A model generated the notes under the pieces. The model was given only the letters and a program-made list of their open reading frames with translations. It was not told the origin of the DNA and did no database searches. Shown in pieces: positions 4,717-53,880 of a stretch of DNA of 64,000 nucleotides (the first letter of the stretch is position 1; each line of letters begins with the position of its first letter). The translations under genes were made by a program, and so were the position numbers. Source of the stretch: an uncultured Bacillota bacterium (GTDB taxonomy: Bacteria > Sysuimicrobiota > Sysuimicrobiia > Sysuimicrobiales > Segetimicrobiaceae); NCBI GenBank assembly GCA_963804645.1, contig CAWDRG010000022.1, forward strand, positions 1 through 64,000, written 5' to 3'.

Positions 4717-5658
4717 TCACATCGCGGGAGGAACCTCCAGGACGGCGGCCTCCCGGCGCCTTCCGAATGCGTAGATCGTGAGGGCCGCCGCCAGCACCAT
4801 CCCCGCGCCGAGGAGCTGGGACGCGGACACCACGGTACCGCGGGTGAGGACCACCAGCAGCGTCGTGACGATGGGCGCGCTAGCGGAGATCGCCGTCACC
4901 CCGGTCGCGGACGCGTAGCGCAGGCCGACGACCTCGGTCAGTGTGAACGCCAGCAGGATGAGGCCTGTGACGAGCACAAACCCCCATTGGATTGGCGATA
5001 GCTGGGTTACGCCTCCCAGGCGGCCGGTCGCCGCGAGGTACGCGAACAGCAGCCCGGATCCGAGCGTCATCTTGCCCGCGACCACCGTCGCGACCGAGAT
5101 GGTCCGAAGGACCGCCTTGATCAGGATCACGCCGACCGCGAACATGACGGTACCGCCGACGAGGAACGGGACGCCGGCATCCGTCCGCACCGTCCGAAAG
5201 CCGACGCCGAGCGCCAGGCCGAGGGCCAGCACGAGCAGCGCCGCGGCGACGGCGCGGCCAACCCGCTCGCGCAGCACGAGCGCGGCGAGCGCCGCCACCA
5301 ACAAGAACTGTGTGTGATCGATCAGCGCCGCCGTCGCCGGGGTGCTAATCTGCAGCCCGCGAAAGTACAGCGCGTACGCGACGCTGCCGGCGCACAGCGC
5401 GATCAGCACGAGTGCGCCCCACTCGCGCCGGCCGAGCCGCGCCAGTTCCTGTCGGTGACGCGCTCCGAGCAGCACCGCGAGGCCGAGCACGATGCCCACC
5501 ACGCCGTTCTTGAGCGCGGTAAAGAGCGTCGAATCGGGAAACAGCTTCACCCCCACGCTGTTCACGAAGATAGCGAACCCGCTGATCGCCGCGTTCATCG
5601 CAGCGAATTGGTATCCGAGACGAGGATCCGAGACGGCACGCGGCTCCACGAGGTTCAC
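4717..5658 (-). CDS. EamA/DMT family transporter
   Basis: About 10 hydrophobic helices in two repeats (LYFRGLQISTPATAALI; GLRYASATGVTAI); GTG start at 5658 with GGGAG RBS. Confidence 0.85.
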   Translation of the reverse strand: MNLVEPRAVSDPRLGYQFAAMNAAISGFAIFVNSVGVKLFPDSTLFTALKNGVVGIVLGLAVLLGARHRQELARLGRREWGALVLIALCAGSVAYALYFRGLQISTPATAALIDHTQFLLVAALAALVLRERVGRAVAAALLVLALGLALGVGFRTVRTDAGVPFLVGGTVMFAVGVILIKAVLRTISVATVVAGKMTLGSGLLFAYLAATGRLGGVTQLSPIQWGFVLVTGLILLAFTLTEVVGLRYASATGVTAISASAPIVTTLLVVLTRGTVVSASQLLGAGMVLAAALTIYAFGRRREAAVLEVPPAM

Positions 5659-5723
5659 CTCGAGGGCCCTCCCTTCGCGAGGGCGTTCGGCGCGGGCGGA
5701 GAGATCCCGTGCGCGCGGCGGGA

Positions 5724-6401
5724 TCAGACCTGGATGCGCCCCCGCGTCTCCGACCGCGCCGCCTCGAGCCGGGCAATCCAGTCGGCGAGGCCGAGCCCCG
5801 AGCGCACGGACACGCGCAGCACGTCGAGGTCGGGCCGCGCGTCCGCGAGGGCGCGGCGGGCCAGAGCGTCGTCGTACCCGGCCGCCTCTGCCAGGTCCAT
5901 CTTGGTGATCACGGCCAGATCCGACGTGGCGAAGATGGTGGGGTACTTCGCGGGCTTGTCCTCCCCCTCGGTGACCGAGAGCAGCACCGCCCGCAGCGCC
6001 TCCCCGAGATCGTAGCTCGCGGGGCACACGAGGTTGCCGACGTTCTCGATGAAGAGAAACTCGAGGGCGGCGAGGTCCCACCCGTCGAGCGCCCGCTCCA
6101 CCATCTCGGCGTCCAGATGGCAGACGGTCCCCGTCGTGATCTGACGGACCGGCGCGCCGCTCGCGCGGAGCCGCACGGCGTCGTGGTCCGTCGCGAGATC
6201 CCCTACGAGGGCGGCGACGCGCCGCATCGGCGCCAACCGCCGCAGCGTCTCGCCCAGCAGCGCGGTCTTGCCCGCCCCGGGGCTGGAGACCAGGCTCACG
6301 ACGCACACGCCGGCATCGGTGAACTGCTGGCGAAGCCGCCGCGCGAGCAGATCGTTCTTCTTCAGCACGGCCTGGCGGACCTCAACGATACGTGGAGACA
6401 T
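5724..6401 (-). CDS. hypB: Hydrogenase nickel incorporation GTPase HypB
   Basis: SSPGAGKT, TGTVCHLDA, ENVGNLVCPA, EGEDKPAKYP motifs. Confidence 0.96.
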   Translation of the reverse strand: MSPRIVEVRQAVLKKNDLLARRLRQQFTDAGVCVVSLVSSPGAGKTALLGETLRRLAPMRRVAALVGDLATDHDAVRLRASGAPVRQITTGTVCHLDAEMVERALDGWDLAALEFLFIENVGNLVCPASYDLGEALRAVLLSVTEGEDKPAKYPTIFATSDLAVITKMDLAEAAGYDDALARRALADARPDLDVLRVSVRSGLGLADWIARLEAARSETRGRIQV

Positions 6402-6744
6402 CCTCCTCCACCTCCAGCGCGGTCACCTCGAGCTCGGTGCCACGGACGAGCTCCGGCGTGGGCGTCCCGCAGACCGGGCACCGGAGCCGTGCCGCGCGGA
6501 GCATCCGCTCGGCCCGGCACGTGGGGCAAAATGCGGCCAGCGGGACCTCCTCGATCACCAGCCGCGCGCCCGCGAGCGGCGTGCCCTCGCACGCGGCGTC
6601 AAACGCGAACCGCAGGGCGTCGCTCGCCACCCCGGACAGCGCGCCGACGCGCAGATGCACCGCCTCGACCCGGCCCCCGCCGGCCTCTCGGGCCCGCTCG
6701 GTCGCCACATCCACCACGCTCAGCGCGATCGACAGCTCATGCAT
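6382..6744 (-). CDS. hypA: Nickel metallochaperone HypA
   Basis: MHE N-terminus; two CxxC (CPTC, CPVC). Confidence 0.96.
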   Translation of the reverse strand: MHELSIALSVVDVATERAREAGGGRVEAVHLRVGALSGVASDALRFAFDAACEGTPLAGARLVIEEVPLAAFCPTCRAERMLRAARLRCPVCGTPTPELVRGTELEVTALEVEEDVSTYR

Positions 6745-6755
6745 GCGGCATCACC

Positions 6756-7511
6756 CTAGGCCTCCACGAGCACGCCCGTGCGCCGCTGCGCATTCGCCAG
6801 CGCGAGGTGGTGGCGTGTGTACTGTACCAGGGCGCGGCACTGCCGGACGGTCAACCGATGGCAGGCGCAGCCCCAGTGCACCGCGACGACGTCCCCGACC
6901 GACACGCGGGACAGCGGCGCCTTCCCATCGAACCACCGGACCACGGATGTCGGCTCGGCCGCACCGAGCACGAGCGCATCGCGTTCGAGGCGCAGCGGAC
7001 GGCGTGCAACCAGCAGGGCATCCCCGCACTCCGCGACGACGCGCGCCCAGCTGATGCGGCAGGCGTCCATCGTCTCGAGGCGGTACCGCGCCCCCGCGTC
7101 ACCCGCCTGCACCGGCATGCTGAAGACGTGAAAGTTGTGGTGGGGCCGCGCGCCCGACGGGATGCCGCCGAGCACCGCCCGCAGCAGCCGCTGGGGGAAC
7201 CGCTGCGCAAAGCGCTCCTCGACGTGCCGCCACAGATCCGCGGCCTCGACGTGCTCGAGCAGTTCGTTGCCGATCCAGTACGCCTCGATCACGCGGAGGT
7301 CGAACGGGTCGGCGATCCCGCTGGCCGCGGCGATCAGCGAGTAGTAGGGAAACGCTCCGGCGAACCGCGCGAGGATCTGCTCGAGTCCGCGGTCGCCGCA
7401 CCCGTCGGCGAGGTGCTCCAAGATCGCCCCGCGCTCGTCGGGGCCGCAGTAGCCGAGCCGGTTCGGCATGAAGCTGAACCGAGCGGCGAGGAGCGCCCCC
7501 TCGCGGCTCAC
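6756..7511 (-). CDS. DUF6390-like hydrogenase-associated protein
   Basis: ARFSFMPNRLGYCGP, EAYWIGNELL, PHHNFHV, DACRI, HWG motifs; lies between hypC and hypA. Confidence 0.8.
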   Translation of the reverse strand: MSREGALLAARFSFMPNRLGYCGPDERGAILEHLADGCGDRGLEQILARFAGAFPYYSLIAAASGIADPFDLRVIEAYWIGNELLEHVEAADLWRHVEERFAQRFPQRLLRAVLGGIPSGARPHHNFHVFSMPVQAGDAGARYRLETMDACRISWARVVAECGDALLVARRPLRLERDALVLGAAEPTSVVRWFDGKAPLSRVSVGDVVAVHWGCACHRLTVRQCRALVQYTRHHLALANAQRRTGVLVEA

Positions 7512-7768
7512 GCGTCGCGCTCCCGGCGGTCGGCGGCCGGCTGGTCGAGCACCGGCGCGAGCTCCTCGAGCAGGCGCACGGTCTCAGCCGCCTCCGCCGC
7601 GGTCAGCCGTTCGACGGCGAACCCGGTGTGCACGAGCACCCACTCGCCCGGCGCCGCCGTCCCGAGCAGGGTCAGGTGCACCGTCTGAACCCGCCCGAGC
7701 ACATCCACCCGCGCCCGCTGGCCGTCCGCGTCGACCTCCACGATTCTCCCCGGCAGCGCGATGCACAT
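7508..7768 (-). CDS. hypC: Hydrogenase assembly chaperone HypC/HupF
   Basis: MCIALPG N-terminus; GEWVLVHTGFA. Confidence 0.95.
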   Translation of the reverse strand: MCIALPGRIVEVDADGQRARVDVLGRVQTVHLTLLGTAAPGEWVLVHTGFAVERLTAAEAAETVRLLEELAPVLDQPAADRRERDA

Positions 7769-7771
7769 CGG

Positions 7772-8257
7772 TCAGCCCCCCGTCGCGATGGTGCGGCCGA
7801 GCGCCGCGATGTCGTCGAGGCCGCGCCGCGCGACGTCCTCCACGGCCGCGGCCACCTCGGACGAGAGGCCGACGCCGGCGTCGAACCGGGCGCCCTCAAT
7901 GCCCACGACGATCAACCGGCGCGGCAGCCGCCCGAGCACGCGGGCGAGTTCGATCGCCTCGGCCGCACCGAAGGCGTGGGTCGAGTAGCGAAACCATCCC
8001 GCGGGCACCGGCGCGGCACCGGCATCCAGGTACAGGAGCGTCCCCGGCGGGGCCCCCGAGGAGACCGCGTCGACGAGGACGACCGTGTCCGCCCCCTCCC
8101 ACGCCTCGATGAGCGCCGTCCCCTCCCCGCTCATCTCTCTCAGGACGGCCGACGCGCCGGCCTCCCCGGCCAGCCGACGCGCCGCGGCCAGGCCCGCCCC
8201 GTCGTCGCGGCCGTAGGCGTTGCCGACGCCGATGACCAGCAGTCCCGGCGTGTCCAC
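7772..8257 (-). CDS. Hydrogenase maturation endopeptidase
   Basis: VIGVGN..RDDGAG, VLVDA, STH motifs; GTG start just after the large-subunit stop. Confidence 0.92.
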   Translation of the reverse strand: MDTPGLLVIGVGNAYGRDDGAGLAAARRLAGEAGASAVLREMSGEGTALIEAWEGADTVVLVDAVSSGAPPGTLLYLDAGAAPVPAGWFRYSTHAFGAAEAIELARVLGRLPRRLIVVGIEGARFDAGVGLSSEVAAAVEDVARRGLDDIAALGRTIATGG

Positions 8258-8259
8258 GG

Positions 8260-9555
8260 TCAGCCGCGCTCGATGTGGAGCCTGAGAAAATGTGTCGCGC
8301 ACGAGATGCACGGATCGTAGTTGCGGACCGCCTGCTCGCACCGCCATGTCAGCTGGTCGTCGGGCAGCGCGAGCGACTGCTGCACCAGGTGGCGGAGATC
8401 CGCCTCGATCTGACCCTGGTTCTGTGAGGTGGGCGGGATGATCGTCGCCTGGGTGATGGCCCCCTCGCGGTCAAGGGTGTACCGATGGTACAGGAGGCCG
8501 CGGGGCGCCTCGGTGGCGCCGTGGCCCGTGCCGGCCCGGGGCGGCACCTCCTGCGCGGAGCGCTCCGGACGGATATACGCGCCGATCAGGCGCAGCGCCT
8601 CGTCGCAGGCGTACACCAGCTCCACGGCACGGACGATAATGCTCCGGAACGGATTGCGGCAGACCGGGCCGAGGCCGGCGTCGCGGGCGGCCTGCTGCGC
8701 CAGGCCGGACAGCACGTCGAAGTTCAGGCTGTAGCGCGCGAGCGGCCCGAGAAAGTACGCGCCGCGCGCCCGCAGGCGCGCGTGCAGCGCGTTCGAGTAC
8801 GGGAGCTGCTCCTCGACGAAGTGGTCGGGGTACGCCTGGACCGCGATGTCGAGCCCGCGGTCGGAGACGATGCGTCCCCGCTCGATCGCGTACTCGCCCG
8901 GCTGGCGCAGGGCCACGAACTCGTAGTCCTGCTCGAACTCGGGAAACTCGAACGCGGCCACCCACCGCACCGTCTCGAGCGCCGCGTCCCGGGCCCACCG
9001 CAGCCGCTCCGCGATCTCGACCAGGTCGCCGGGCGCGGGCGCCCGGTAGAATCCCCCGACCCGCACGTTGATCGGGTGCACCGCCCGCCCGCCGAGCACG
9101 GCCATCAGGTCGTTGCCGACCCCTTTCAGCGCGAGCCCCCGTTCGACCGCCTGCCGGTGGTCCCGGGCCATCTCGATGACGCTGTCGTACCCGAGGAAAT
9201 CGGGCGCGTGCAGCATGTACACGTGCAGCGCGTGGCTCTGAATCCACTCCCCGCAGTACAGCAGCCGGCGCAGCTGCTGGAGGGGCCCGTCCACCACCAC
9301 CCCACAGGCGTCCTCCATCGCCGCGCACGCGCTCATCTGGTAGGCGACCGGGCAGATGCCGCAGATGCGGGCCGTGATGTCGGGCGCCTCCGTGAACTGC
9401 CGCCCCCGCAGGAACGCTTCGAAAAACCTCGGCGGCTCGTAGATATCCAGCCGGAGGTCCACGACCCGGTCGCCTTCGATCTTGATGAAGATTGCCCCCT
9501 CTCCCTCGACCCGGGCGAGGGCCCCGACTTTGATCGTGCGCGTCTTAGGCGCCAT
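8260..9555 (-). CDS. hyhL: Group 3b [NiFe]-hydrogenase large (alpha) subunit
   Basis: RVEGEG, L1 RICGIC, L2 DPCISCATH followed by a cleavable C-terminal tail; beta/gamma/delta genes upstream. Confidence 0.95.
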
Positions 9556-10324
9556 CAGCGTCACCGGCCTTCCGGAACGCGTCCGCGAAGGCGTTCACCC
9601 CGCGGTACGCCCGGCGGAGCGCCGGCTTGGACACGCCGATGCGCTGCCACTCGGCGCCGAGCGACGCGGTGTTGGGGGTCTCCATCGGTCCGTAGCAGCC
9701 GTAGCAGCCCCGGTCGTAGGCCGGGCAGATGGCCCCGCAGCCGGCGTGGGTCACCGGTCCGAGGCACGGGGTGCCGCGGGCGACCATCACGCAGACGGTG
9801 CCGCGCCGCTTGCACTCGACGCAGACGCTGTGGGCGGGAATCGACGGCCGGCGCCCCTGCGCGCACGCCCGGATCACCTCGAGCAGCTGGAGCTTGTTGA
9901 TCGGACACCCGTGCAGCTCGAAATCGACGCGCACGTGGTGGGCAATCGGCGTCGACGTGGCGAGCGTTTCGATGTACTCGGGATGGGCGTACACCGCCGC
10001 GGTAAACTCGTGGACGTCCGCGAAGTTCCGCAGCGCCTGAATGCCGCCGGCCGTCGCGCAGGCGCCGATCGTGACGAGCGACTTCGAGACGCGCCGCACG
10101 TGCTGGATGCGCGCCGCGTCGTGCGCGGTCGTGATCGACCCTTCGACGAGCGACAGATCGTAGGGACCCGGGGCCTCGGCGCGCGACGCCTCCAGGAACG
10201 ACGCCACCTCCACCTCCCCGAGCAGCGCGAGCAGCTCCCGCTCGAGGGACAAGAGCTGGAGCTGGCACCCGTCGCAGGAGGCGAACTTCCAGACGGCCAG
10301 CCGCGGCCGGCGCGGGGCGGCCAT
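9545..10324 (-). CDS. hyhS: Group 3b hydrogenase small (delta) subunit
   Basis: SCDGC, EGS, GACA, GCP and VCVEC...CLGP...CGAICP...CYGC motifs. Confidence 0.93.
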
Positions 10325-11193
10325 CAGAGCTCCCTCACGCGACGCCACGATGCGATCCGGTCGTACCGGAACACGGGCCCGTCCTTGCAGACGAACTCCG
10401 GCCCGAACTGGCAGTGGCCGCACAACCCGATCGCGCACCGCATGCTGCGCTCCATCGAGAGGTAGATCCGCTCGGGCGCCAGCCCTCGCTTCTCGAGCTC
10501 GGCGACGGTAAACCGCATCATGACTTCCGGCCCGCAGACCATCGCGGTGGTCTCAGCCGGCTCGCACTCCACGCGGCCGATCAGCGTGGTCACGACCCCG
10601 ACATGGCCGTGCCACGCGTCGGGGTCGGCGGCGTCCACCGTGGCCTCGACCTGGACGTCGAACCGCCCGCGCCACCGCGCCAGCTCTGGTCCGTACAACA
10701 GGTCGCCGGGCGTGCGAGCGCCATACACCAGGGCGACCCGGCCGTACTCGCTTCGGTGCGCCAGCACGTGGTACAGGACCGGACGCAGGGGGGCCAGGCC
10801 GATCCCGCCCGCGACGATCAGCACGTCGCCGCCCACGGCGGCATCCACCGGCCAGGCACTTCCAAACGGACCGCGGACCCCGAGTGTCTGCCCACGCCGT
10901 AGGCGGCAGATGTCGTTGGTGACCCGACCAACCGCCCGGACCGTGTGCACCAGCTCCTGGGGCGCGCCCGGATCGCCCGAAATCGAGATGGCGGCTTCCC
11001 CCACCCCGAACACGTACAGCATGTTGAACTGGCCCGGGGCGAAACCGTACCGTCCGCCGCCTTCCGCGGACTCGATCGCAAGGGTCATCGTGTCGTGCGT
11101 CTCCCGCTTGACCCGCCGCACCGCCCACGGGCTCGGCGCCATGGCCTCCACGACGGCGGCACCAGCCGGCGCTCGCTCAGGCACGGCGGCCAT
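10324..11193 (-). CDS. hyhG: Group 3b hydrogenase gamma subunit (FAD/NAD(P)-binding, 2Fe-2S)
   Basis: [42 protein letters not shown]. Confidence 0.93.
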
Positions 11194-11624
11194 AGACATC
11201 CAGCAGCTGCAGCCGCGTCGCCGTGAGCCGTTCTCCGACGACGCGCGACACACGCTTCAGCAGTTCGTAGCCGAGCCGGGGATCTTCGTCGCACTTCTTT
11301 CGGATGCAGGCGCCGTCGAACGAGGTGGCCCGCACCAAATCGACCGCCCGGGCATCGCACCCCTTCCGGTAGGGTGGGACCAGCCAGGACCAGCCAAGCA
11401 GTTCGCCCGCGCCCAACGTCGCGAACATCACCCGACCGCGCTCGGGAGACGCGAGCTCGAGCCCGACCGTGCCGTGGCGGATGAGGTAGAACTGGTCGGA
11501 CGGATCGCCCTCGTGGAACAGATACATCCCGGCCTTGAACTGCACATTGGAACCGCAGCCCGCGATCATCGTGAGATCGTCCTTCGACAGCCCCAAGAAC
11601 AGCGGGCTCTCGGTCAGCAGCGCG

Positions 11625-11638
<14 letters not shown>
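11177..11638 (-). CDS. Stand-alone cyclic nucleotide-binding domain protein
   Basis: [21 protein letters not shown] cNMP fold; no HTH; overlaps both neighbours. Confidence 0.88.
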
Positions 11639-12794
<1,156 letters not shown>

Positions 12795-13195: not shown

Positions 13196-14884
13196 TCACG
13201 CCAGGTACTCGGGCACCCACTGCCGCGCGACCGCCTCGGCGCGCAGCGCCTCAGGCGTCGTGCGCGGCGCGAGCCCTACGCGCTGCGCCTCGAGGCCGAC
13301 CGCCACGGCGATGTCCACGGCCACCCGGCGGAGGTCCCGGACGCTGGGCAGAAGCGGCGCCGTCGGATCGCTGGCCGACGGCGACTGTGCGCTCAGCGCG
13401 CGGGCCGCGGCAGCCAGCATGCCGTCCGTCACCCGGCGCGCCCCCGACGCGACGAGCCCCAGCCCGACCGCGGGGAAGATGAACACGTTGTTGCACTGGG
13501 CGATCGTCCAACGCCGCCCGCCGTAGTCCACCGGCGGAAACGGCGACCCGGTCGCGACGAGCGCCCGGCCCTCGGTCCAGCGCAGGAGATCGCCGGGGGT
13601 CGCCTCCGACCGGTCGGTTGGGTTCGACATCGGGAAGATGATCGGCCGCTCGACCTTGTGCGCCATCTCCCGGACGATCGCCTCGGTGAACGCGCCGCCC
13701 ACCGTCGACAGCCCGATCAGGATCGTGGCGGGCACCTGGCTGATCACGTTGGCCAAGCCGATCTGCCCGGCCGACGTCCGCGGCCATTCGGCGACCCGGG
13801 CCGCGGGCTGCGCGTAGACCGCCTGCTCGGGGCTGAGGTCGCGGCGCCCATCGTGCAGCAGGCCGCCGCGATTGAGAATCCAGAACCGCCTCCGTGCCTC
13901 TTCGTCCGAGAGGCCGCCGGTGACCATCGCCGCGCGCAGGTAGTCCGCGACGCCGATGCTCGCCGAGCCCGCCCCGAGAATCACGACCTGCTGGTCGGCG
14001 ACCGAGCGCCCCGCGACGCCGACCGCCGCCAGCAGGGTGCCGAGCGTCACCGAGGCGGTCCCCTGGATGTCGTCGTTGAACGTCAGAAGCTGATCGCGGT
14101 ACCGCTCGAGGATCGGGCGCGCGTGCGCCATCGAGAAATCTTCCCACTGCAGGCACGCCGCGGGCAGTTCCTGCCTCACCGCCTGGACGAACTGGTCGAC
14201 GAACGCGTCGTACTCCTCGCCGACCACGCGCCGGTGCTGCCACCCGAGGTACTCGGGGTCGCTCAGATTCTCCGGGTTGTTCGTCCCGACGTCCAGGACG
14301 ATCGGGAGCGTTCGCGACGGATGGATGCCGCCGATCGCGGTGTACAGCGACAGCTTCCCGATCGGGATCCCGAGCCCGTCGACCCCCTGGTCGCCGATGC
14401 CGAGAATCCGCTCGCCGTCGGTCACGACGATCACGTCGACGTGGGGATGGGGACGGTTCCGCAGCAGTTCCGGGATCTGGTCCCGCAGCGGATACGACAC
14501 GACGAGGCCACGGGGCCGGCGGTAGATGTGGCTGAACTGCTGACACGCCTGGCCCACGACCGGGGTGTAGATGATCGGCGTCATCTCTTCGACGTGCTCC
14601 AGGACCAGGCGGTAGAACAGCACCTCGTTCGTGTCCTGCAGCGCGCGCAGGTAGATGTGGCGCTCGAGATCGTCGGTCTTGCGCTGGTACGCGTGGTAGG
14701 CGCGCGCCACCTGCTCCGCGAGCGTCTCGACGCGCGGCGGCAGCAGCCCGTCCAATCCCAGCGCCGTCCGCTCCTCGGCGGTGAATGCGGTCCCCTTGTT
14801 GAGCGCCGGGGTGTTGAGCAGCTGCATCCCCCGCAGTTCGGCCCGTGGATCGGCGTCCTGCACCGCGTGCCAGCCCGTTGTCAT
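13196..14884 (-). CDS. maeA: NAD-dependent malic enzyme (MaeA/SfcA type)
   Basis: LNKGTAF, IYTPVVG, TDGERILG.GD, QWEDF, FNDDIQGT, GAGSA, SNPT. Confidence 0.95.
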   Translation of the reverse strand: MTTGWHAVQDADPRAELRGMQLLNTPALNKGTAFTAEERTALGLDGLLPPRVETLAEQVARAYHAYQRKTDDLERHIYLRALQDTNEVLFYRLVLEHVEEMTPIIYTPVVGQACQQFSHIYRRPRGLVVSYPLRDQIPELLRNRPHPHVDVIVVTDGERILGIGDQGVDGLGIPIGKLSLYTAIGGIHPSRTLPIVLDVGTNNPENLSDPEYLGWQHRRVVGEEYDAFVDQFVQAVRQELPAACLQWEDFSMAHARPILERYRDQLLTFNDDIQGTASVTLGTLLAAVGVAGRSVADQQVVILGAGSASIGVADYLRAAMVTGGLSDEEARRRFWILNRGGLLHDGRRDLSPEQAVYAQPAARVAEWPRTSAGQIGLANVISQVPATILIGLSTVGGAFTEAIVREMAHKVERPIIFPMSNPTDRSEATPGDLLRWTEGRALVATGSPFPPVDYGGRRWTIAQCNNVFIFPAVGLGLVASGARRVTDGMLAAAARALSAQSPSASDPTAPLLPSVRDLRRVAVDIAVAVGLEAQRVGLAPRTTPEALRAEAVARQWVPEYLA

Positions 14885-14936
14885 CGCCATCCTCCTCACT
14901 CGCTGTCGCTCAGCCCGTCCCCCGTGCGGCCGCGGA

Positions 14937-19553: not shown

Positions 19554-19605
19554 CCCGGTGTGCCTCCCTATCAAGGCGCGGCGGCGCGCGCCCGGCGGTC
19601 GCTCG

Positions 19606-34634: not shown

Positions 34635-34684
34635 CGTGGACGCCTCCAACGTAGCCGCGGTGCATCCGCGGCTGGCTGAATCGC

Positions 34685-41564: not shown

Positions 41565-41796
41565 CCCCTGCACGCCCCGACCGCTGCGATGCCGTCTGCA
41601 CCTGACCCACCGCCGTAATCTCCGTCCAGGCATCCCGCGGCACCCCGAAGCGCTCTGCGACGTCGAGCACTTCGGCGAGCGTCCGATACCAAAATTCTTC
41701 CTCCGCCAAGCCGGCGCGTGCTGCGCGCCGCCAAGGTAGGCGACTCCCGTAAGTGTGTGTGCCCCCGCGTGCGGACGAGACGTCAGCGCCGCGGCG

Positions 41797-43877: not shown

Positions 43878-45515
43878 TCACCAGACGCGCATCCCCGCGG
43901 CGTTCAGCTGCGTCGTCGAGATCAGGTTGATCAGCACGGGCCCGTACGCCAGCACGATCAGCAGCACCGCGAAGCCGATCCACATCCGCCAGTTGTCCAG
44001 CCACGCCGGCACCGGCGCGGCCTCGTACGGTTCGGCGATCGGCATCTCGACCGGCTGCGTCGCCTTCGCCCCGGCGAACACCGTCCCGACCACCACGATG
44101 AAGAACAGGGTGACGCTGATCCACAGAATCACCCCGCCGACCGCGCCATCCACGAGGTACGGCTTCCACGCGGCGTCCAGGTAGGTGGCCGACCCGAGCG
44201 CGACGCGGCGCGGCACGCCGTAGTCGAGGCCCACGAGATGGTAGGCGCCGGACATGATCAGCATCCCGAGGAACCACGTATACGCCTGCGCGAGCGCGAG
44301 CTTCGGCGCCCAGAGCTGGCGTCCCGTGAGGTGCGGCAGCAGCCAGTACAGGATGCCGATGAACGTCAGGGTCACCGCGGTCGCCACGGTCAGGTGGAAG
44401 TGGCCGGCTATGAACAGTGTGTTGTGCACGACGAGGTTGACGTTGTACGAGGCGTTCACCAGCCCGCCGATGCCGCCGAACGCGAACAGGATCATCGCCA
44501 GATTCTGCGCGGCGTACGACGGGTCGTGCCACGGCAGTGCGCCCATCCACGCGAACAGTCCCCGCCCGCCACGGGCGCGCGCCCCGATCTCAAGCGACGC
44601 GATCACCGTAAACGCCGTCATCATGCTCGGGAAAAACACCGCGTACGTGAGCAGCCCGTGCACGGCCTTCCACGCGGGCGAGATGCCCGGGTCGAGAAAC
44701 TGATGGTGCAGGGCGACCGGGACGGACAGCACGAGAAACAGCCAGAACGAGAGGCGCGCCAGCGGATCGCTGAACAGCTTCCCGCCCGCCTGCTTCGGCA
44801 TCATGACGTACCAGGACACGTACGCCGGCAGCAGCCAGAAGTACACGAGCGCGTGCCCGAAGAACCAGAACTCGGTCCGGGCCAGCAGCGGGTCCGTGCC
44901 GCCCAGCCACCCCACCGACCAGGGAATCAGCATCCCCAGCATCTCGGCCGCGACGCCGAGGGAGCAGATCTGCCACATCACCATCGTGATCAGCGAGGCG
45001 AGCGCGAGCAGCGGGGTGCGCTCGCCGGGGTGCTCCCGCCGCCACCGTCCGTAGGTCACGTAGTAGCCCCAGCCGGCCACCCACGACCCGACGACGACGA
45101 GGGTGAGCCCCACGTAGAACGTCCAGTGCGCCTTCATGGGGGGATAAAACGTGTAGAGCACCGTCGCGTTGTTGGTGAGGAGCGCCCAGGCGGTGAGCGC
45201 GGTGCCGACGACCATCAGGACGAACCCGACGACGTTGAGCCACGGCGCGTCGAGAGGCCGACGGAGCCCGTAGGTCACGGTCAGCGTAAAGAACCCGATG
45301 ATGAAGAACGTCGTCCACACGAGCGCGTTGAACACGCCGTGGATCGACAACCCCTGATAGTACGAGATCCCGCCGGTCGCCGACGGATACAGGTTGACCC
45401 CCGCGTGCTCCAGGGTCTGCAGCGGGCCGAACCACGTGCCGACGGCGAGCGCGACCAGCGCCACGCCGATGTTCCAGGAGGCCAGGGCCCGCTCGCGGGC
45501 GAACATCGTCTGCAT
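43878..45515 (-). CDS. cbaA: ba3-type (family B) cytochrome c oxidase subunit I
   Basis: YYQGLSIHG, YTFYPP, FWFFGHALVY, LHHQF, GHFH, PRR. Confidence 0.94.
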   Translation of the reverse strand: MQTMFARERALASWNIGVALVALAVGTWFGPLQTLEHAGVNLYPSATGGISYYQGLSIHGVFNALVWTTFFIIGFFTLTVTYGLRRPLDAPWLNVVGFVLMVVGTALTAWALLTNNATVLYTFYPPMKAHWTFYVGLTLVVVGSWVAGWGYYVTYGRWRREHPGERTPLLALASLITMVMWQICSLGVAAEMLGMLIPWSVGWLGGTDPLLARTEFWFFGHALVYFWLLPAYVSWYVMMPKQAGGKLFSDPLARLSFWLFLVLSVPVALHHQFLDPGISPAWKAVHGLLTYAVFFPSMMTAFTVIASLEIGARARGGRGLFAWMGALPWHDPSYAAQNLAMILFAFGGIGGLVNASYNVNLVVHNTLFIAGHFHLTVATAVTLTFIGILYWLLPHLTGRQLWAPKLALAQAYTWFLGMLIMSGAYHLVGLDYGVPRRVALGSATYLDAAWKPYLVDGAVGGVILWISVTLFFIVVVGTVFAGAKATQPVEMPIAEPYEAAPVPAWLDNWRMWIGFAVLLIVLAYGPVLINLISTTQLNAAGMRVW

Positions 45516-45520
45516 CCCCC

Positions 45521-46000
45521 CTACCTCGCCGGGTCGACGATGATGCGGCCGGCCATCGTCTGATGGTTCAGCCCGCAGTATTCGTCGCACCAAAACGGGT
45601 ACGTGCCCGCCTTCCGAAACGTCGCCGTCAGGTCAGACACCTGGCCGGGCAGCACCATCATGTGGATGTTCGTGCCTGCCACGTAAAAGCCGTGCTGCAC
45701 GTCCTGGCTGGTCAGGTGAAACGTGACCGTGGAGCCCTGAGGGACATGGATCTCATTGGGGAAAAACGTCCAGATCTGCGCGCGGATGTACGCTTCGTAG
45801 CGCCCCGGCCCGAGCTGCCGCAGGCCGGGCGACGCGAACGGGCCGGCCGACCCGACGGTCGCGGGGTTGACCCGCACGGAGACCCCCGGGACCTCGATCC
45901 CGCCCACGATCGCCGTGACGGCGATGGCGACGACGAAGATGACCAGCATGATGCCCGTGGCCCAGAGCCAGCGCTGCTCGTAGCGGTCGAGGTGCATCAT
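45521..46000 (-). CDS. cbaB: ba3-type oxidase subunit II (CuA)
   Basis: Single TM helix; DVQHGF and CDEYCGLNHQTM CuA motif. Confidence 0.94.
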   Translation of the reverse strand: MMHLDRYEQRWLWATGIMLVIFVVAIAVTAIVGGIEVPGVSVRVNPATVGSAGPFASPGLRQLGPGRYEAYIRAQIWTFFPNEIHVPQGSTVTFHLTSQDVQHGFYVAGTNIHMMVLPGQVSDLTATFRKAGTYPFWCDEYCGLNHQTMAGRIIVDPAR

Positions 46001-46149
46001 TGCGTCGTCCCCCGGCTGAGCATCACGAAGTAGATGCCCCCCCACGAGAGGATGATCAGCAGCATGTACACCGCGAGCAGCGCCACCGTGCCCTGCGGCG
46101 CGTGGTACCCGTCGTCACCCGGCTGCGGTCGTGGATGGTTGTCGTTCAT
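45997..46149 (-). CDS. cbaD: ba3-type oxidase subunit IIa (50 aa; below the ORF-track cutoff)
   Basis: MNDNH...PQGTVALLAVYMLLIILSWGGIYFVMLSRG; PxG..W..Y..RG pattern; GAGGA RBS; ATGA overlap with cbaB. Confidence 0.85.
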   Translation of the reverse strand: MNDNHPRPQPGDDGYHAPQGTVALLAVYMLLIILSWGGIYFVMLSRGTTQ

Positions 46150-46230: not shown

Positions 46231-49439
<3,209 letters not shown>

Positions 49440-49443
<4 letters not shown>

Positions 49444-49709
49444 GTCGGGAGGAGCGGCTGCGGAAACACCTCGAGGTGCAGGAACACCGGCTCAAGAGGG
49501 CCGAGCAGGCCCGCGGGACGCTTCTGTCTCGGGCGCTCTACGTCGGCACGGTGGGCCTGCTCTTGGTGCTGCCGCCCGTGGCGGGCGCGTACCTCGGGAA
49601 TTGGCTCGACCGGCGCGCCGGCGCCTACTCCGTCCAATGGACGATCTCGCTGATCCTGCTCGGCCTCGGAGTCGGCGTGTTCAATGTGTACCGGTTGATC
49701 AAGGAGTAG
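49440..49709 (+). CDS. atpQ: AtpQ (AtpZ/AtpI-like) N-ATPase accessory membrane protein
   Basis: G..G...PPVAGAYLGNWLD, two TM helices; GTGA overlap with atpC. Confidence 0.85.
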
Positions 49710-49712: not shown

Positions 49713-50405
49713 ATGCTGAGCGGCGCGCTCACGGCCACCGTGGTGTTCCAGCTCGGACCGCTCCAAGTGACGAGCACGACGGTCACCACCTGGGTGATCA
49801 TGCTCGTGTGCGGGCTGCTCGCGTGGGCCGGCAGCCGGCGGCTGCGGATGGCGCCGGGCCTGTTCCAGACCGCTGTCGAGGCGGTCGTCGCCCTGATGGA
49901 AGACCAGATCCGCCAGGTCGCCCCGCAGCTCACGTCCGAGCTCCTGCCATTTATCGGCACGCTGTGGATCTTTCTCCTCGTCGCGAACCTCAGCGGCCTG
50001 CTGCCCGGCGTCGCGTCGCCGACCCAGGACCTCTCGCTGACCGCGGCGCTGGCGGTCGTCGTCTTCCTGTCGGTGCATTGGTTCGGCATCCGGACGCGCG
50101 GCGCCGCGGCGTATTTCCGCCACTATCTCAAGCCGACGCCCCTGCTGCTGCCGTTCGAGCTCATCAGCGAAGTCACGCGGACGGTCTCCCTCGCCGTCCG
50201 GCTGTTCGGCAACATGATGAGCCTGGAGCTGACGGCGCTGCTGGTCCTGTTTGTGGCGGGGTTTCTCGTGCCCATTCCCATTCTGATGCTCCACATCGTG
50301 GAAGCCCTGGTGCAGGCGTACATCTTCGGGATGTTGGCGCTAATCTACGTCGCCGGCGGCCTGGAAGCGCAGGCCGAACGGCAGACCGAAAGGAGTCAGC
50401 CATGA
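49713..50405 (+). CDS. atpB: F0 subunit a
   Basis: ANLSG, PT.DL, SLAVRLFGN, QAYIF. Confidence 0.95.
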   Translation: MLSGALTATVVFQLGPLQVTSTTVTTWVIMLVCGLLAWAGSRRLRMAPGLFQTAVEAVVALMEDQIRQVAPQLTSELLPFIGTLWIFLLVANLSGLLPGVASPTQDLSLTAALAVVVFLSVHWFGIRTRGAAAYFRHYLKPTPLLLPFELISEVTRTVSLAVRLFGNMMSLELTALLVLFVAGFLVPIPILMLHIVEALVQAYIFGMLALIYVAGGLEAQAERQTERSQP

Positions 50406-50668
50406 CTGGCCTCAGCTGGATGGCGGTCGTATCGACGGTGGCGGCGATTCTGGGGATGGCGATCGGCGTGATCGGGCCCGCGCTGGGCATGGGCCGCGCC
50501 ATCAGCAGCGCGCTCGATGCGATCGCGCGGCAGCCCGAGTCGGAGGCGACCGTGATGCGCCTGCTGTTCATCGGGCTCGCGATGATCGAGTCGCTCGCCA
50601 TCTATTGTCTGGTCATCGTCCTCATCATCTTGTTCCGCAATCCACTGTTCGCGTACCTGGTGAAGTAG
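50402..50668 (+). CDS. atpE: F0 subunit c
   Basis: GPALGMG, ARQPE, LAMIESLAIY, FRNP. Confidence 0.95.
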   Translation: MTGLSWMAVVSTVAAILGMAIGVIGPALGMGRAISSALDAIARQPESEATVMRLLFIGLAMIESLAIYCLVIVLIILFRNPLFAYLVK

Positions 50669-50784
50669 GCGGGAGCCCGGATGATGTTCACCCGACATCG
50701 TCGCGGCGACGAACGCGGACAGGTCCCGGCGTCCTCCGGCGCTCGGTCCGGAGGCATCCGGGGGGACACACGGGGGCGATCGCG

Positions 50785-51528
50785 GTGCAGCTGAACGGGT
50801 CCACGTTTGTGCTGGAGATCATCAACTTCCTGATCCTCGTCTGGATTCTCCAGCATTTCCTGTATAAGCCGGTCCTCAACCTCGTGGCCCGACGGCGCGC
50901 CGCCGTGGAGCAGATGGTCGCGGACGCGCACGCGCTCCAGCAGGACGCCGACGCCTTGAAACGCCAGTACGAGGCCCGCGCGGCGCAGTGGGCAGCGGAA
51001 CACGAGGCGGCCCGCGCCGCCCTCGCAGACGAGATCGCCGCCGAGCGGGCGAGGCAGCTCGGCCACGTCCGCGCCGAACTCGAGCAGGAGCGGCAGCGGG
51101 CGGACGCGCTGGAGCAGCGCCGGATGGAAGCGCTCCGGAGGCGGCTGGAGCAGGCCGCCGTCGAGACCGGGGCCCAGTTCGCGGCGCGCCTGCTCCGCGC
51201 CGCGGCCGCGCCCGAGCTGGAACAGCGTCTGATCACCCTGCTACTCGAGGGTCTCCCGACGCTCCCGGCGGAGCAGCGAGACGGCCTGCGCGCCGCGGCA
51301 GCGGCCGCACACGACGTGGCCGTCGTGACCGCCTATCCGCTGGACGACGGCACGCGCCGGTCGATGGAGCGCGCGTTCGAGACGGCGTTGGGCGCGGCGG
51401 CGGCGTTCCGGTACGCTGAGGACCGCGCGCTAGGGGCCGGGGCCCGCGTCACGATCGGCCCGTGGGTCCTGCGCGCGAATCTTGAGGACGACCTGGCGGC
51501 GTTTGCGGAGTTCGCCCATGGCGCCTGA
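50785..51528 (+). CDS. atpF: F0 subunit b with fused delta-like C-terminus
   Basis: [20 protein letters not shown], coiled coil, VVTAYPL...LGAG delta-like tail. Confidence 0.92.
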
Positions 51529-53011
51529 TACGGCGGCGACCGGTCCCCTCGAGACGCAGCGGGCCTGGCTGGCCACGTACGCGCCGGGGCTCCGCGTGGC
51601 GGAGCAGGGCACCGTGGTGTCCGTGGGCGACGGGATCGCGTGGATCGCAGGCCTGCCGTCGGCCACCCTGAACGGCGTGCTCGAACTGGAACACGGGGGC
51701 CAGGCGATGGTCTTCGACCTGAGCGACCGCATGGTCGGCGCCGTGATCCTGCGGGACAGCGGCACCATCACCTCGGGCACCACGGTCCGGCAGACGCGCG
51801 GCCGGCTCGCGATGCCGGTCTGTCCCGAGCTGCTCGGGCGGATCGTCGACCCGCTCGGAAGTCCGCTCGACGGCGGGATCCCACTCACCCCGACGGCCTG
51901 GCAGCCGCTCGAAGCCGCCTCGCCACCGATCGTGGCCCGCGATTTCGTCCGCCGGCCGCTGTACACCGGCATCAAGGTCATCGATACGCTGATCCCGATC
52001 GGCAAAGGCCAGCGGCAGCTGATCATCGGCGACGGGGGCCTGGGACGCACGTCGGTGGCCTTGGACGCGGTGATCCACCAACGGGGACAGGCGGTCCGCT
52101 GCGTCTACGTCCTGGTCGGGCAGAAGCGGTCGACCGTCGTGAACGTCGTCGAGACGCTGCGCGCGCACCGCGCCTTGGAGTTCACTACCGTCGTCGCCGC
52201 CGAGGCGAGCGCGCTGCCGGGCCTGCAGCACCTCGCCCCGTTTGCGGGATGCGCCGTCGCGGAGTACTGGATGCAGCAGGGCTACGACACCCTGGTCGTC
52301 TACGACGACCTCGCAACCCACGCGAAGCTCTACCGCGAACTGTCGCTGCTGCTGCGCCACCCGCCGGGACGCGAGGCGTACCCGGGCGACATCTTCTCGA
52401 TCCACGCGGGCCTGCTCGAGCGGGCGACGTGCCTGAACGCCGAGCACGGCGGGGGCAGCATGACGGCTCTGCCGATCGTCGAAACGCTGCAGGGGGAGAT
52501 CGCGGCGTACATCCCGACGAACCTGATCTCCATCACCGACGGGCAGGTGTATCTCGACCGGCGGCTCTTCGCGAGCGGCGTCCGCCCGGCGATCGACATC
52601 GCGAAGTCCGTCTCCCGCATCGGCGGACAGGCGCAGCATCCCCGCATCAAAGGCGAGGCGGGCCGGATGAAGCTCGACTATCTCCAGTTTCTCGAGCTCG
52701 AGGTGTTTACGCAGTTCGGCGCGCGCCTCGAAGCGTCGATGGAGGCCGCGATCCGCCGCGGCCGCGTGCTGCGGGAGATCCTGAAGCAGGACCGCCTGTC
52801 GCCGGTGCCCATCGAGTCTCAAATGGCATGGCTGGTGGCGTTCAACGAAGGCTTGCTCGACGACGTGGAGCTTGCGGACGTCGCGGGGCGCCTGGACGCG
52901 CTACAGCGCGGCGTCGAGCAGGCGTCCCTCACCGTCGACAGTCCGCGGTCCGAATGGGTCGCGGCCGTCACCCGCACGCTCGGCGGCGCGCCGCGGCCCG
53001 CCGCACCATGA
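51518..53011 (+). CDS. atpA: N-type F-ATPase alpha subunit
   Basis: [44 protein letters not shown]. Confidence 0.95.
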
Positions 53012-53880
53012 GCCGCCGCCGCGAGCTGGAACGCCGCTGCCGCACGCTCGGCGAGATTCGCAACATCATGGACTCGATGAAGACGCTGGCCTACCTGGAG
53101 ACGCGAAAGCTGACTCGGTTTCTGGCGGCGCAACGCGCCGTCGTCGCGCACCAGCGGGCGGTGGCCGACGACCTGCTCGCCCACTACCCCGAGACGCTTG
53201 CGCCGGCGGTGCCGTCACTCTCGGTCTACGTGCTGATCGGCTCGGAACGCGGGTTCTGCGGCAGCTTCAACCAGACGATCCTGACGGCATGGGACGCGGT
53301 TGCCGAGACGGCGGGCGGCGCGGCGGTGGTCCTGCCGGTGGGACGCCGGCTGTGCGCGCATCTGGAAGGCTCGCCTCGCGCGGCCGCGTTCGTGGCGGGC
53401 GCCGCCTCGGTGGACGAGGTGCCGGACACGCTCAACCGGATCACCGACGCGCTGGCGTCGCTGCAGGCGCGCCACGGCGGCCTCGCGGTGACGGCCGTCT
53501 ACCACGATCCGGACCTCACGGAGGTCGCGATCGAACGGTTGCTGCCGCCGTTTGGCGCTCCGGAGGTCCGCCGCCGGCGGTTCGCGTGCCCCCCGATGCT
53601 AACGCTGCCGCCCGACGCGTTCCTGGCCGCGCTCGTGGACGAGTACCTGTTTGCCACGCTGCACCAACTTCTCTATCTCTCGCTGATGGCCGAGAACCTC
53701 CGGCGAACGCAGCACCTGGATGGCGCCGTGCGGCACCTAGACGATGAGACCGCGGCCCTGCAGCGCCGGGTGAACGCCGCGCGCCAGCAGGAGATCATCG
53801 AGGAGATTGAAGTCATTCTGCTCAGCGCCGGCCAGACGGAGGGCCCGCTGCCGGGCCGTCCGGGCGACGCGCGCAAGTAG
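53008..53880 (+). CDS. atpG: N-type F-ATPase gamma subunit
   Basis: [31 protein letters not shown]. Confidence 0.94.

Follow-up and report, generated by a model that had tools for sequence, protein, structure and literature searches.

In Mycobacterium tuberculosis and Mycobacterium smegmatis, the DosR/DevR-DosS/DosT system links GAF-HisKA_3 kinases to an autoregulated NarL-type response regulator, and its regulon, expressed from promoters that carry a palindromic operator (the Dev box), reportedly includes several universal stress proteins (USPs), CBS-pair proteins, Rv2629, Hsp20, phosphofructokinase (PFK) and a P-type ATPase. The group 3b [NiFe] hydrogenase Hyh of M. smegmatis is likewise DosR activated (bioRxiv 10.1101/2023.09.11.557286). 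Another arrangement of this kind is the lxa locus of Burkholderia cenocepacia, a cluster of ~50 genes in which one palindrome occurs at many intergenic points, with a few further co-regulated loci elsewhere, and whose members include USPs, alpha-crystallin, PFK and a cation ATPase, an overlap with DosR pointed out by its authors (PMC3721108). Here we describe a locus of comparable content in the genome of an uncultured bacterium (5.31 Mb in 22 contigs, 96.8% complete; G000). It lies in the first 64 kb (hereafter the window) of a 175.6-kb contig, C22, and combines a response regulator with genes for a transhydrogenase, stress proteins, a ba3-type oxidase and a second rotary ATPase. With moderate confidence, we regard the region from 21.3 to 53.9 kb, and probably also the block of hydrogenase and pyruvate:ferredoxin oxidoreductase (PFOR) genes that extends it to 4.7 kb, as a hot spot of a genome-wide activator regulon that would respond to oxygen limitation.

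The evidence that ties these genes together is an 18-bp palindrome, ATCGGG-N6-CCCGAT, that recurs in the intergenic sequences of the window. At no more than one mismatch, ATCGGGNNNNNNCCCGAT is present in eight copies where 0.56 would be expected (0 of 100 shuffles reached eight), and all eight are intergenic; the genome as a whole has 56 such sites, 8 within 23 kb of the window and 6 within 33 kb of contig C11. A −10-like hexamer, TANNNT, starts 22 to 23 nt past the end of the operator. Throughout the genome, 31 sites of at least 10 bits have TANNNT at these offsets, compared with 0 to 8 at each of the eight other offset pairs tested, and this control is independent of the building of the position weight matrix (PWM), since the −10 spacing was not used in training. 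The eight window sites on which the PWM was trained all have an xAxxx(T/A) hexamer at offset 22 to 23 and are oriented to a gene, and the same spacing rule is obeyed by four window sites outside the training set (at 21335, 29179, 30845 and 35202). A composite model of operator plus −10 hexamer found eight sites in the window; sites were otherwise listed at a threshold of 12 bits. Placing the hexamer at −12 to −7 puts the palindrome at about −52 to −35, with its center near −43, which on this alignment is the usual geometry of a class II activator. The promoter-proximal Dev box of DosR lies at the same place. The Dev box itself was tried as the shared operator and ruled out, the canonical form GGGAC-N4-GTCCC being found in the window at the expected frequency (6 copies versus 6.34 expected).

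Genes were called from the GC content at codon positions and named through Pfam, NCBIfam and Protein Data Bank (PDB) sequence searches, and these upheld the gene inventory of the original prediction (hydrogenase, PFOR, malic enzyme, PntAB, GlpD, glyceraldehyde-3-phosphate dehydrogenase [GAPDH], ba3 oxidase, bc complex, USP, CBS proteins and an eRF1-like factor) at about the positions proposed. Reading through the center of the island, an operator at 24533-24550 (− strand; TACCAT at +23) faces pntAA in the pntB-pntAB-pntAA genes of a proton-translocating transhydrogenase (21607-24489, −; Pfam PNTB, PNTB_4TM and AlaDh_PNT), which are 84 to 99% identical to those of L001, the locus of the nearest public metagenome-assembled genome (MAG). 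The divergent region between csd and the regulator gene has two operators, one (29179-29196, −; TACGCT at +22) facing a unit of csd (28892-29140, −; Pfam CSD), glpD (27019-28872, −; Pfam DAO and DAO_C, with NF008899 at 327 bits, just under its cutoff of 360), orf104 (26572-26886, −) and an acyl-CoA synthetase gene (24720-26525, −; Pfam AMP-binding), and the other (29223-29240, +; TAGCTT at +22) facing the regulator gene itself. A gene for a YbaK-type aminoacyl-tRNA editing domain protein (30108-30608, −; Pfam tRNA_edit) is faced by an operator at 30651-30668 (−; TACCCT at +22), and its orthologue in the related genome G002 (locus L052) also has an operator. The site at 30845-30862 (+; TATCGT at +23) faces the eRF1-like gene, baeRF (30945-32132, +), whose product passes Pfam baeRF_family10 (34.6 bits versus a cutoff of 27.1) and, at 39 bits against the cutoff of 320 of NCBIfam Rv2629_fam_RHF, is distantly like the Rv2629 family.

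Farther along, an operator that belongs to the composite model (32193-32210, +) precedes the gene for a CBS-pair protein (32283-32882, +; Pfam), and one of the training sites (33337-33354; TATGTA at offset 22) precedes that for a CBS-BON protein (33562-34320, +; Pfam); both proteins have paralogues on a second island described below. A weak operator at 35202-35219 (−; TATCCT at +22) faces the USP gene (34685-35116, −; Pfam Usp), beside which lies an 80-residue open reading frame (ORF) (34446-34688, −). The training site at 35300-35317 (GATGAT at +22) faces an extra type I GAPDH gene (35348-36448, +; TIGR01534 at 398.6 bits versus a cutoff of 367.2), further copies of which are found at 1368 kb of contig C9 (58% identity) and 110 kb of C5 (34%). 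The genome has one copy each of PFOR, malic enzyme, PntAB, GlpD and baeRF. Two more training sites stand back to back at the far end of the island: that at 47137-47154 (CACGAT at +22) faces sco, the ba3 oxidase and the bc complex, and that at 47283-47300 (CATGAT at +22) faces an 84-residue ORF and atpD.

The presumed operator-binding activator is an orphan NarL/LuxR-family response regulator, RR1 (29299-29991, +; Pfam Response_reg and GerE). Its receiver is normal, its acidic pocket and phospho-acceptor Asp aligning with those of VraR and DevR, and its PDB sequence matches are led by VraR (E = 4.6e-49), with NarL at 2.1e-35 and DevR at 3.2e-34 (rank 5). The recognition helix reads KTVQSH in RR1 and KTVKNY in DevR, and RR1 differs at two of the three positions (K179, K182 and N183) that we take to be the DNA contacts of DevR. 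Among 11 loci of regulator orthologues in relatives, none of which contributed to the training of the PWM, 8 have an operator of 17.7 to 26.7 bits 100 to 220 bp upstream of the regulator gene; the site is on the other side in two and missing in one. The genome encodes a paralogue of RR1 (79 to 82% identity) at C11:188486-189142, and no kinase adjoins either regulator. By these comparisons the regulator is not an orthologue of DosR/DevR, and the system appears analogous, not homologous, to DosR.

The candidate sensor is a cytoplasmic GAF-HisKA_3-HATPase_c histidine kinase, recognized by domain search at C11:214266-215537 inside the second island and one of three orphan HisKA_3 kinases in the genome. 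In at least 13 relatives, GAF-HisKA_3 homologues of this kinase directly adjoin the regulator orthologues. In its GAF domain, an alignment of 17 such kinases shows C109, C111, C129 and H145 in every one (Cys-x-Cys-x17-Cys plus a His), which suggests a cofactor other than heme, and only the ATP-binding domain of the kinase matches DevS and DosT in the PDB (2.2e-9 and 3.6e-6, respectively). The AirS kinase of Staphylococcus aureus binds a [2Fe-2S] cluster through the motif Cys-X7-Cys-X-Cys-X17-Cys (PMC4601167), and the sensor studied here thus looks to be of an iron-sulfur (AirS-like) rather than a heme-GAF type. AirSR (YhcSR) is a [2Fe-2S] redox- and oxygen-sensing two-component system that shares with our pair a HisKA_3 kinase, an N-terminal cysteine cluster with the identical Cys-X-Cys-X17-Cys spacing and a NarL/LuxR-type regulator (PMC4601167, PMC8774646), the closest solved regulators to RR1 being staphylococcal VraR; it differs in its target genes, which are quite different from those described here.

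The regulon appears to be genome-wide, with ~31 promoters, and the island in the window is one of two hot spots. The second island (C11, 187 to 237 kb; loci L024 to L026) contains the paralogous regulator and the GAF-HisKA_3 kinase, and beyond that regulator 10 composite sites are spread over 45 kb. Its genes encode a CBS protein, four or five molybdopterin oxidoreductases of the dimethyl sulfoxide (DMSO)-reductase family with a NarJ-like chaperone, a CHAD protein, USPs, two CBS-BON proteins, an ABC/HlyD exporter, an ADP-forming acetyl-coenzyme A (CoA) synthetase/GNAT protein, a cold-shock-domain protein, PFK, adenylate kinase, Hsp20, aconitase and glucan phosphorylase. Another 14 composite sites are scattered, preceding genes for molybdoenzymes, a radical-SAM enzyme, a P-type ATPase, a D-2-hydroxyacid dehydrogenase, a PAS-LuxR regulator, a peroxiredoxin, sugar ABC importers and copies of an ISL3 transposase. 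Judged by these annotations, the members on the second island and elsewhere are anaerobic or stress genes. The original prediction had pictured a DosR-like regulon physically clustered around one regulator. The sites before the USP, CBS, baeRF, ba3/bc and ATPase units agree with this, but the cluster is one of two hot spots and there is a second regulator. Two perfect operators of identical sequence, one at C8:113231 and one at C17:14678, each followed by TATCTT at +22, stand ~160 bp upstream of the ISL3-family transposase copies.

The same regulator, kinase and promoter class seem to occur together across the whole of this small phylum. We searched 73 genomes (the "phylum" scope: completeness of at least 85%, all marked "same order") for the pattern ATC-N10-CNGAT-N22/23-TANNNT, which has 32 matches in the present genome versus 2 for a reversed control. 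At least five matches were found in 58 of the 73, the control never exceeding two. A sensor domain was detected (E up to 1e-10) in 65, and seven of the eight genomes that lack it have three matches or fewer, the exception being G040 with 24 (89% complete). G030 and G047 form two rows of these counts, with one pattern match each. Of the first 30 relatives, 22 have a close regulator orthologue (best E of 1e-87 or lower), and their median number of matches is 15; for the other 8 it is 1.5.

Behind the operator at 47137 lie a Sco-like gene (orf256; 46231-47001, −; the SCO1/SenC lead comes from a protein atlas alone, with a score of 0.96 and no alignment), the genes for ba3-type oxidase subunits II (COX2; 45521-46045, −; Pfam) and I (COX1; 43878-45593, −; Pfam, with Thermus ba3 as the PDB match), a Rieske protein gene (43188-43784, −; Pfam) and a fused cytochrome b/subunit IV/cytochrome c gene (41797-43587, −; Pfam). 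COX1 matches the Thermus ba3 chains at E values of 6.7e-131 to 2.2e-129 over its full length (residues 17 to 571 of the query), and the first PDB match outside the ba3 group is 8iuf at 5.5e-12; on these matches it is subunit I of a B-family (ba3-type) heme-copper oxidase. The enzyme resembles the Thermus thermophilus ba3 oxidase (PDB 1EHK, 1XME) in its full-length subunit I and small subunit II, and differs in being placed beside sco and a Rieske/cytochrome b-c complex, with an operator of the regulator type in front. A second COX1 in the genome, an A-type COX1+COX3 fusion of 28% identity, has its own Rieske protein and cytochrome b (C11, 53 to 58 kb). No cytochrome bd was found in the assembly, and the ba3 enzyme is therefore its sole candidate for a high-affinity oxidase. 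Only 1 of the 30 relatives, G024, has an orthologue of this subunit I (56%). Downstream lie an acyl-CoA synthetase gene (39942-41633, −; Pfam AMP-binding) and an HpaB-family flavoenzyme gene (38451-39902, −; Pfam HpaB_N and HpaB), both below the NCBIfam equivalog cutoffs. These two genes are possibly the tail of the oxidase unit; no operator was found in 41634-41796.

The divergent operator at 47283 faces a second rotary ATPase. The first gene downstream of it is the 84-residue ORF (47370-47624, +), Cys rich (C-x2-C-x17-C-x2-C) and with no family match, the stop codon of which overlaps the atpD start (ATGA). Naming by Pfam, ORFs and NCBIfam gives atpD (47621-49027, +), atpC (49024-49443, +), atpQ (~49440-49709, +), atpB (49713-50405, +), atpE (50402-50668, +), a long atpF with a delta-like C terminus (50605-51528, +), atpA (51482-53011, +) and atpG (53011-53880, +). 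The order is thus D-C-Q-B-E-F-A-G, with no room for an R gene between the end of atpQ at 49709 and the start of atpB at 49713, and a search of the whole genome (96.8% complete) for AtpR (PF12966) gave no match at E values of up to 1, the Methanosarcina acetivorans control being positive above the cutoff. The b subunit (307 residues in the longest ORF) matches ATP-synt_B over residues 67-197 and OSCP over residues 228-299, and the operon has no separate OSCP gene. The NCBIfam "alternate F1F0" models come top for beta, b and gamma, all under their cutoffs, and the scores for the ordinary atpD and atpA models are above theirs. In the c subunit, Met takes the place of the Gln seen in the aligned solved c-rings, and helix 2 reads E-S-L-A-I-Y without the Thr, like chloroplast H+ c-rings, by what we take to be the numbering of the Na+ ligands. 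The enzyme is accordingly read as an N-ATPase-like, AtpR-less alternate F-type ATPase that is probably H+ coupled.

N-ATPases are defined by the order atpDCQRBEFAG with AtpR as a hallmark, by the lack of a delta gene and by always being a second copy, and their c subunits have the full Na+ ligand set or a helix-1 Glu (Dibrova 2010, PMC2881411). The operon had been called an N-ATPase outright; the beta-epsilon-AtpQ-a-c-b-alpha-gamma order (R aside), the missing delta gene, the long b subunit with its delta-like tail and the occurrence as a second copy all agree with that name, but atpR is lacking, as are both the helix-1 Glu/Gln and the ESTxxY set of the c subunit. It further resembles N-ATPases in accompanying another rotary ATPase, of A/V type, and in looking laterally acquired. 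The other enzyme is a V/A-type ATPase at C9:1358-1365 kb (genes for subunit I and a c subunit, plus two of ATP-synt_ab type that are taken to encode A and B); no second F-type set was found in the genome. Thus, separate ATPase, oxidase, bc and GAPDH copies do exist, as would be expected if those on the island were not the housekeeping ones. A beta orthologue of more than 48% identity occurs in 0 of the 30 relatives, and this ATPase, together with the ba3 oxidase, is nearly confined to this genome. An alternate operon of 47 to 48% identity, present in G002 and G005, has the same gene order, a delta-tailed b subunit, a duplicated c subunit and an aldehyde dehydrogenase gene upstream. The c subunit at these loci (L052, G002:C15; L053, G005:C145) is of 180 residues with two PF00137 repeats, and DUF779 lies alongside. 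In G005 the alternate ATPase (47%) is downstream of, and on the same strand as, an operator-bearing csd promoter, beside CBS-BON and USP genes with sites. In two genomes, therefore, the regulon is linked to an alternate F-type ATPase, by way of a different enzyme in each.

There is a precedent for an alternate ATPase in a low-oxygen response, since in Nitrospira marina the subunits of an N-type ATPase rise at low oxygen (PMC8115632). That is a proteomic observation on a Na+-type N-ATPase, with no regulator or operator defined. The original prediction had known of no description of an N-ATPase and a ba3/bc chain in such a regulon. Our literature search likewise returned none that joins an N-ATPase with DosR and none of such a regulon for N-ATPase and hypoxia; the N. 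marina result does anticipate the rise of an N-type ATPase at low oxygen.

The hydrogenase/PFOR block (4.7 to 21.6 kb) is tied to the operator less directly. The [NiFe] hydrogenase comprises alpha (8260-9564, −; Pfam NiFeSe_Hases, NCBIfam sulfhydrogenase ShyA/HydA), delta (9545-10438, −; Pfam Oxidored_q6, NCBIfam ShyD), gamma (10324-11253, −; Pfam NAD_binding_1 and DHODB_Fe-S_bind, NCBIfam ShyC/HydG) and beta (11625-12794, −; Pfam Fer4_22, NCBIfam ShyB/HydB) subunits, the best NCBIfam models for all four being those of Pyrococcus sulfhydrogenase (group 3b), at scores that all fall under the equivalog cutoffs. The four-subunit makeup, in which gamma binds FAD/NAD(P) and beta is an Fe-S protein, fits group 3b, and the Ni-binding Cys motifs of the large subunit are intact, including DPCISCATH; the enzyme, single copy in the genome, is classed as group 3b type on these features and would be of the H2-evolving type. 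It is followed by an HycI-type protease gene, hypC, a DUF6390 gene, hypA and hypB (5724-8347, −; Pfam HycI, HupF_HypC, DUF6390, HypA and cobW/HypB) and, as the last gene of the block, one for an EamA-family transporter (4717-5700, −; Pfam EamA), which comes after hypB in relatives too. The order of the maturation genes is conserved in relatives, and the DUF6390 gene (6756-7511, −), between hypC and hypA, has the same place in relatives of the same family. Between beta and gamma sits a 178-residue ORF with a cyclic nucleotide monophosphate (cNMP)-binding domain (11177-11713, −), kept at the same place in 9 of 10 hyh loci of relatives and not detected in that of G022. To our knowledge, no nucleotide-binding accessory subunit of a group 3b hydrogenase has been described.

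Upstream of the hydrogenase are genes for malic enzyme (13196-14899, −; passing NF010052), a dihydroorotate dehydrogenase (DHODH)-like protein (14937-15950, −; passing PRK07565), PFOR (15960-19574, −; TIGR02176 at 1710 bits versus a cutoff of 911) and a GltD-like NAD(P)-binding Fe-S flavoprotein (PRK12771). This last gene is frameshifted (19606-20763 and 19958-21400, −), with positions 14-171 and 173-565 of PRK12771 in two frames and a break near 20760-20770 at a GGGCCCGG run, probably a single-base assembly error. The DHODH-like and GltD-like proteins that flank PFOR may form an NAD(P)H-linked electron module for it. The intergenic gaps from 21400 down to 4717, by ORF coordinates, are all of ~70 bp or less, sizes compatible with one long transcript. 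The closest thing to an operator here is a weak half-site (ATACTCTCGCCACCCGAT; 21335-21352, −; TATGCT at +23) facing the GltD-like and PFOR genes.

As no site of at least 12 bits occurs in the block, the hydrogenase, malic enzyme and PFOR would depend on the half-site, on read-through from pntA or on both, and it is by one or both of these routes that the regulator probably reaches them. The relatives, in which the order of the hyh operon is conserved, offer parallels. In G011 and G015, an operator leads to pntAAB and then directly to hyh, and in G002 and G006 it leads to a USP gene and then to hyh; the contigs of G010 and G017 end too early for the upstream comparison. The hydrogenase large subunit is present in 13 of the 30 relatives, at 56 to 81% identity in 12 of them. 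The claim of a single operator shared by all units, hydrogenase included, was therefore too broad: the palindrome is real and stands before many of them, and a group 3b-type hydrogenase is indeed co-located, but its link to the operator is indirect.

Two mobile elements touch the window. An IS21 pair (IstB and IstA; 200-2460) at the contig start is followed by a nucleotidyltransferase gene and a DinB-family gene in DNA of lower GC content (0.59 to 0.64 in the first 4 kb and 0.67 to 0.73 from there on). An insertion sequence (IS) of ~1 kb (37392-38400, −), outside the regulon, has 99%-identical copies at C19:242985 and C6:72448; its transposase had no Pfam or NCBIfam match. In one contig from a peat metagenome (run X2), 37391 is followed directly by 38401 and the IS is missing, the shorter side of this contig being only 33 letters long. 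The spacer after the GAPDH gene (36449-36763) resembles by eye the C-terminal end of an AMP-binding enzyme and may be a gene remnant beside the IS. A search for Spo0A_C found none, and simple sigma-70 and terminator scans of 4.5 to 44.5 kb gave no useful promoters or terminators, being uninformative in DNA of 70% GC.

The locus is represented in peat. Peat metagenomes contain a fraction of 0.40 to 0.77 of the sampled words of 34 to 42 kb, and peat RNA libraries contain 0.09 to 0.22. RNA-library contigs (two runs from one peat sample), mapped onto 28 to 48 kb, cover parts of glpD and csd, of the regulator-ybaK junction, of baeRF and of the CBS, CBS-BON, USP (34422-35156) and GAPDH genes, as well as of the atpD leader. 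From 36.7 to 47.3 kb (IS, HpaB, bc and ba3), these two runs gave only 21-letter joint fragments, which are not evidence of silence. The libraries were used as short Logan contigs, which give no transcript levels, starts or strands.

From these observations we propose the following mechanism. The GAF-HisKA_3 kinase on the second island would sense oxygen or the redox state through its AirS-spaced Cys/His site and would phosphorylate both RR1 and its 80% identical paralogue. A regulator dimer would then bind ATCGGG-N6-CCCGAT at about −52 to −35 and activate transcription as a class II activator at pntAB, csd-glpD, its own gene, ybaK, baeRF, CBS, CBS-BON, USP and the extra GAPDH gene and, at the far end of the island, at the sco/ba3 oxidase/bc unit and the AtpR-less alternate F-type ATPase. 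The effect would be to retool energy metabolism and protect cell components when oxygen is limiting in waterlogged peat. The regulon would support scavenging respiration through the high-affinity oxidase, the disposal of reductant as H2 and the upkeep of the membrane potential at the expense of ATP.

Several observations weigh against this interpretation. We infer low-oxygen control, in both its signal and its direction, from gene content and habitat. The sensor domain had no NCBIfam or PDB sequence match, the heme-GAF domains of DosS and DosT included. Its likeness to AirS is one of motif spacing rather than of alignment with AirS. The sensor-regulator pair is nearest to AirSR among known systems, and its sensor lacks a Cys at the first AirS position (8 residues upstream) and has the invariant His145 instead. 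Reviews disagree, moreover, on whether AirS is active under oxic or anoxic conditions (PMC4601167, PMC8774646). On the operator side, the PWM scores of the eight window sites are circular, those sites being the training set, and four window operators, including those of the oxidase and the ATPase, have the noncanonical hexamers TATGTA, GATGAT, CACGAT and CATGAT. The hydrogenase lacks its own operator, nothing that reaches 12 bits was found from 4.7 to 21.6 kb (hydrogenase, malic enzyme and PFOR), and the PFOR site is the half-site at 21335, of only 9.6 bits. Relatives add further counterexamples. No site was found near pntA-hyh in G009, and L001, in which baeRF is 74% and pntAB 84 to 99% identical, has no site of at least 12 bits in its 21 kb, there being only half-sites at the same spacing. 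G005 (31 matches), G003 (9) and G014 (6) have the promoter pattern with no close regulator orthologue found at completeness values of 86 to 94%, all three having a match to the sensor domain. The counts over the 73 genomes come from related genomes that are not independent samples, and they carry no test statistic.

Of the other ways to read the locus, one that we think rather unlikely keeps the regulon but changes its signal to nitric oxide, peroxide, iron/sulfur status, energy starvation or stationary phase, making it a general persistence program. Many of the members would suit such a role (USP, CBS, Hsp20, the cold-shock domain proteins and baeRF), the promoter type is also found with a peroxiredoxin and with sugar ABC transporters, and AirS reacts with H2O2 and nitrosating agents, its oxygen response being disputed (PMC4601167, PMC8774646). 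Against this are the functions that belong to low or zero oxygen only, namely, the B-family oxidase, PFOR, the H2-evolving-type hydrogenase, the radical-SAM enzyme, the 2-hydroxyacid dehydrogenase and several DMSO-reductase-family molybdoenzymes with their NarJ-like chaperone, and the position of the ba3 enzyme as the only candidate high-affinity oxidase where no cytochrome bd was found. Nor do we give much credence to a true orthologue of the DosR/DevR-DosS/T systems of mycobacteria and Streptomyces whose sequence has drifted. Here, too, the attraction is plain, in that the kinase (GAF-HisKA_3-HATPase) and regulator (receiver and GerE) architectures match, the palindrome is centered near −43 as in DosR promoters, the contents overlap (USP, CBS, baeRF, Hsp20, PFK, P-type ATPase and group 3b hydrogenase) and the ATP-binding domains of DevS and DosT are weak matches to the kinase. 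The details, however, point elsewhere: RR1 is nearer to VraR and NarL than to DevR and differs at two of its three presumed contact positions, the Dev box is not enriched, GGG and CCC are spaced by 6 nt and not 8, and the kinase has a single GAF domain with the invariant CxC-x17-C and no PDB match to the DosS/DosT heme-GAF domains.

A reading that denies regulatory unity altogether, taking the clustering as a by-product of gene transfer and IS activity and the palindrome as that of another factor or a repeat, strikes us as very improbable. It can appeal to the IS21 pair and the second IS, to the absence of the ba3 oxidase and this ATPase from nearly all relatives and to the perfect operators upstream of ISL3 transposase copies on C8 and C17. 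It fits poorly with the constant spacing of 22 to 23 nt to the −10 hexamer, the orientation of each site to a gene, the conservation of the site upstream of regulator orthologues, the co-occurrence of promoter pattern and kinase sensor over 73 genomes and the fact that the laterally acquired units bear the lineage's own operator. Least credible of all, to the point of being barely worth entertaining, is a contig that is an assembly chimera of unrelated genomes, a concern raised with the original prediction. A multicopy IS does lie inside the island and the assembly contains at least one likely indel error, the frameshift upstream of PFOR, but GC content is even from 4 kb onward, the hydrogenase block is 74 to 81% identical to and syntenic with blocks of the same family, the same operator occurs on both flanks of the internal IS and the IS-free peat contig bridges it, albeit with the short overhang mentioned above. 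A chimeric assembly is thus unlikely.

We therefore return to an activator regulon responding to oxygen limitation, the likeness of which to DosR holds for function and not for ancestry. That the two are analogous had been proposed from the outset and stands at the level of gene content, but the operator, ATCGGG-N6-CCCGAT, has a spacing 2 nt shorter, the regulator is closer to VraR, the CxC-x17-C+H sensor is not heme-GAF-like and the host belongs to a small, nonactinobacterial phylum. The regulon also adds the ba3 oxidase with bc, the alternate ATPase, PntAB, GlpD and PFOR with malic enzyme. From lxa it differs in its operator, the lxa motif being Anr/Fnr-like (TGA-N6-TCA) and validated by transcriptomics and deletion, and in its content, lxa not being known to include a hydrogenase, an oxidase or a rotary ATPase and the housekeeping ATP synthase being downregulated there (PMC3721108). 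The link to the hydrogenase is indirect, and oxygen as the signal is a well-motivated inference.

Taken together, these results offer a sequence-level model of how an uncultured peat and soil lineage would cope with fluctuating oxygen, with a sensor, a regulator, an operator, a promoter geometry and ~30 target promoters, in which an alternate rotary ATPase and a high-affinity oxidase belong to one regulatory unit with PFOR and, less directly, with hydrogenase. A DosR-like gene set wired to another sensor chemistry and operator would be a case of convergent regulon assembly. We suggest, tentatively and as a possibility short of an even chance, that a small uncultured phylum independently assembled its own DosR-like dormancy and low-oxygen regulon around an AirS-like Fe-S GAF kinase and a NarL-type activator with an operator of its own, and that in the present genome this regulon captured a laterally acquired ba3/bc chain and an AtpR-less H+-type F-ATPase. 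The regulator and operator defined before the alternate ATPase provide an experimental handle on the role of N-type and alternate F-ATPases. If the suggestion is true, such "second" rotary ATPases would be ATP-driven pumps that keep the membrane energized during fermentative, H2-evolving persistence.

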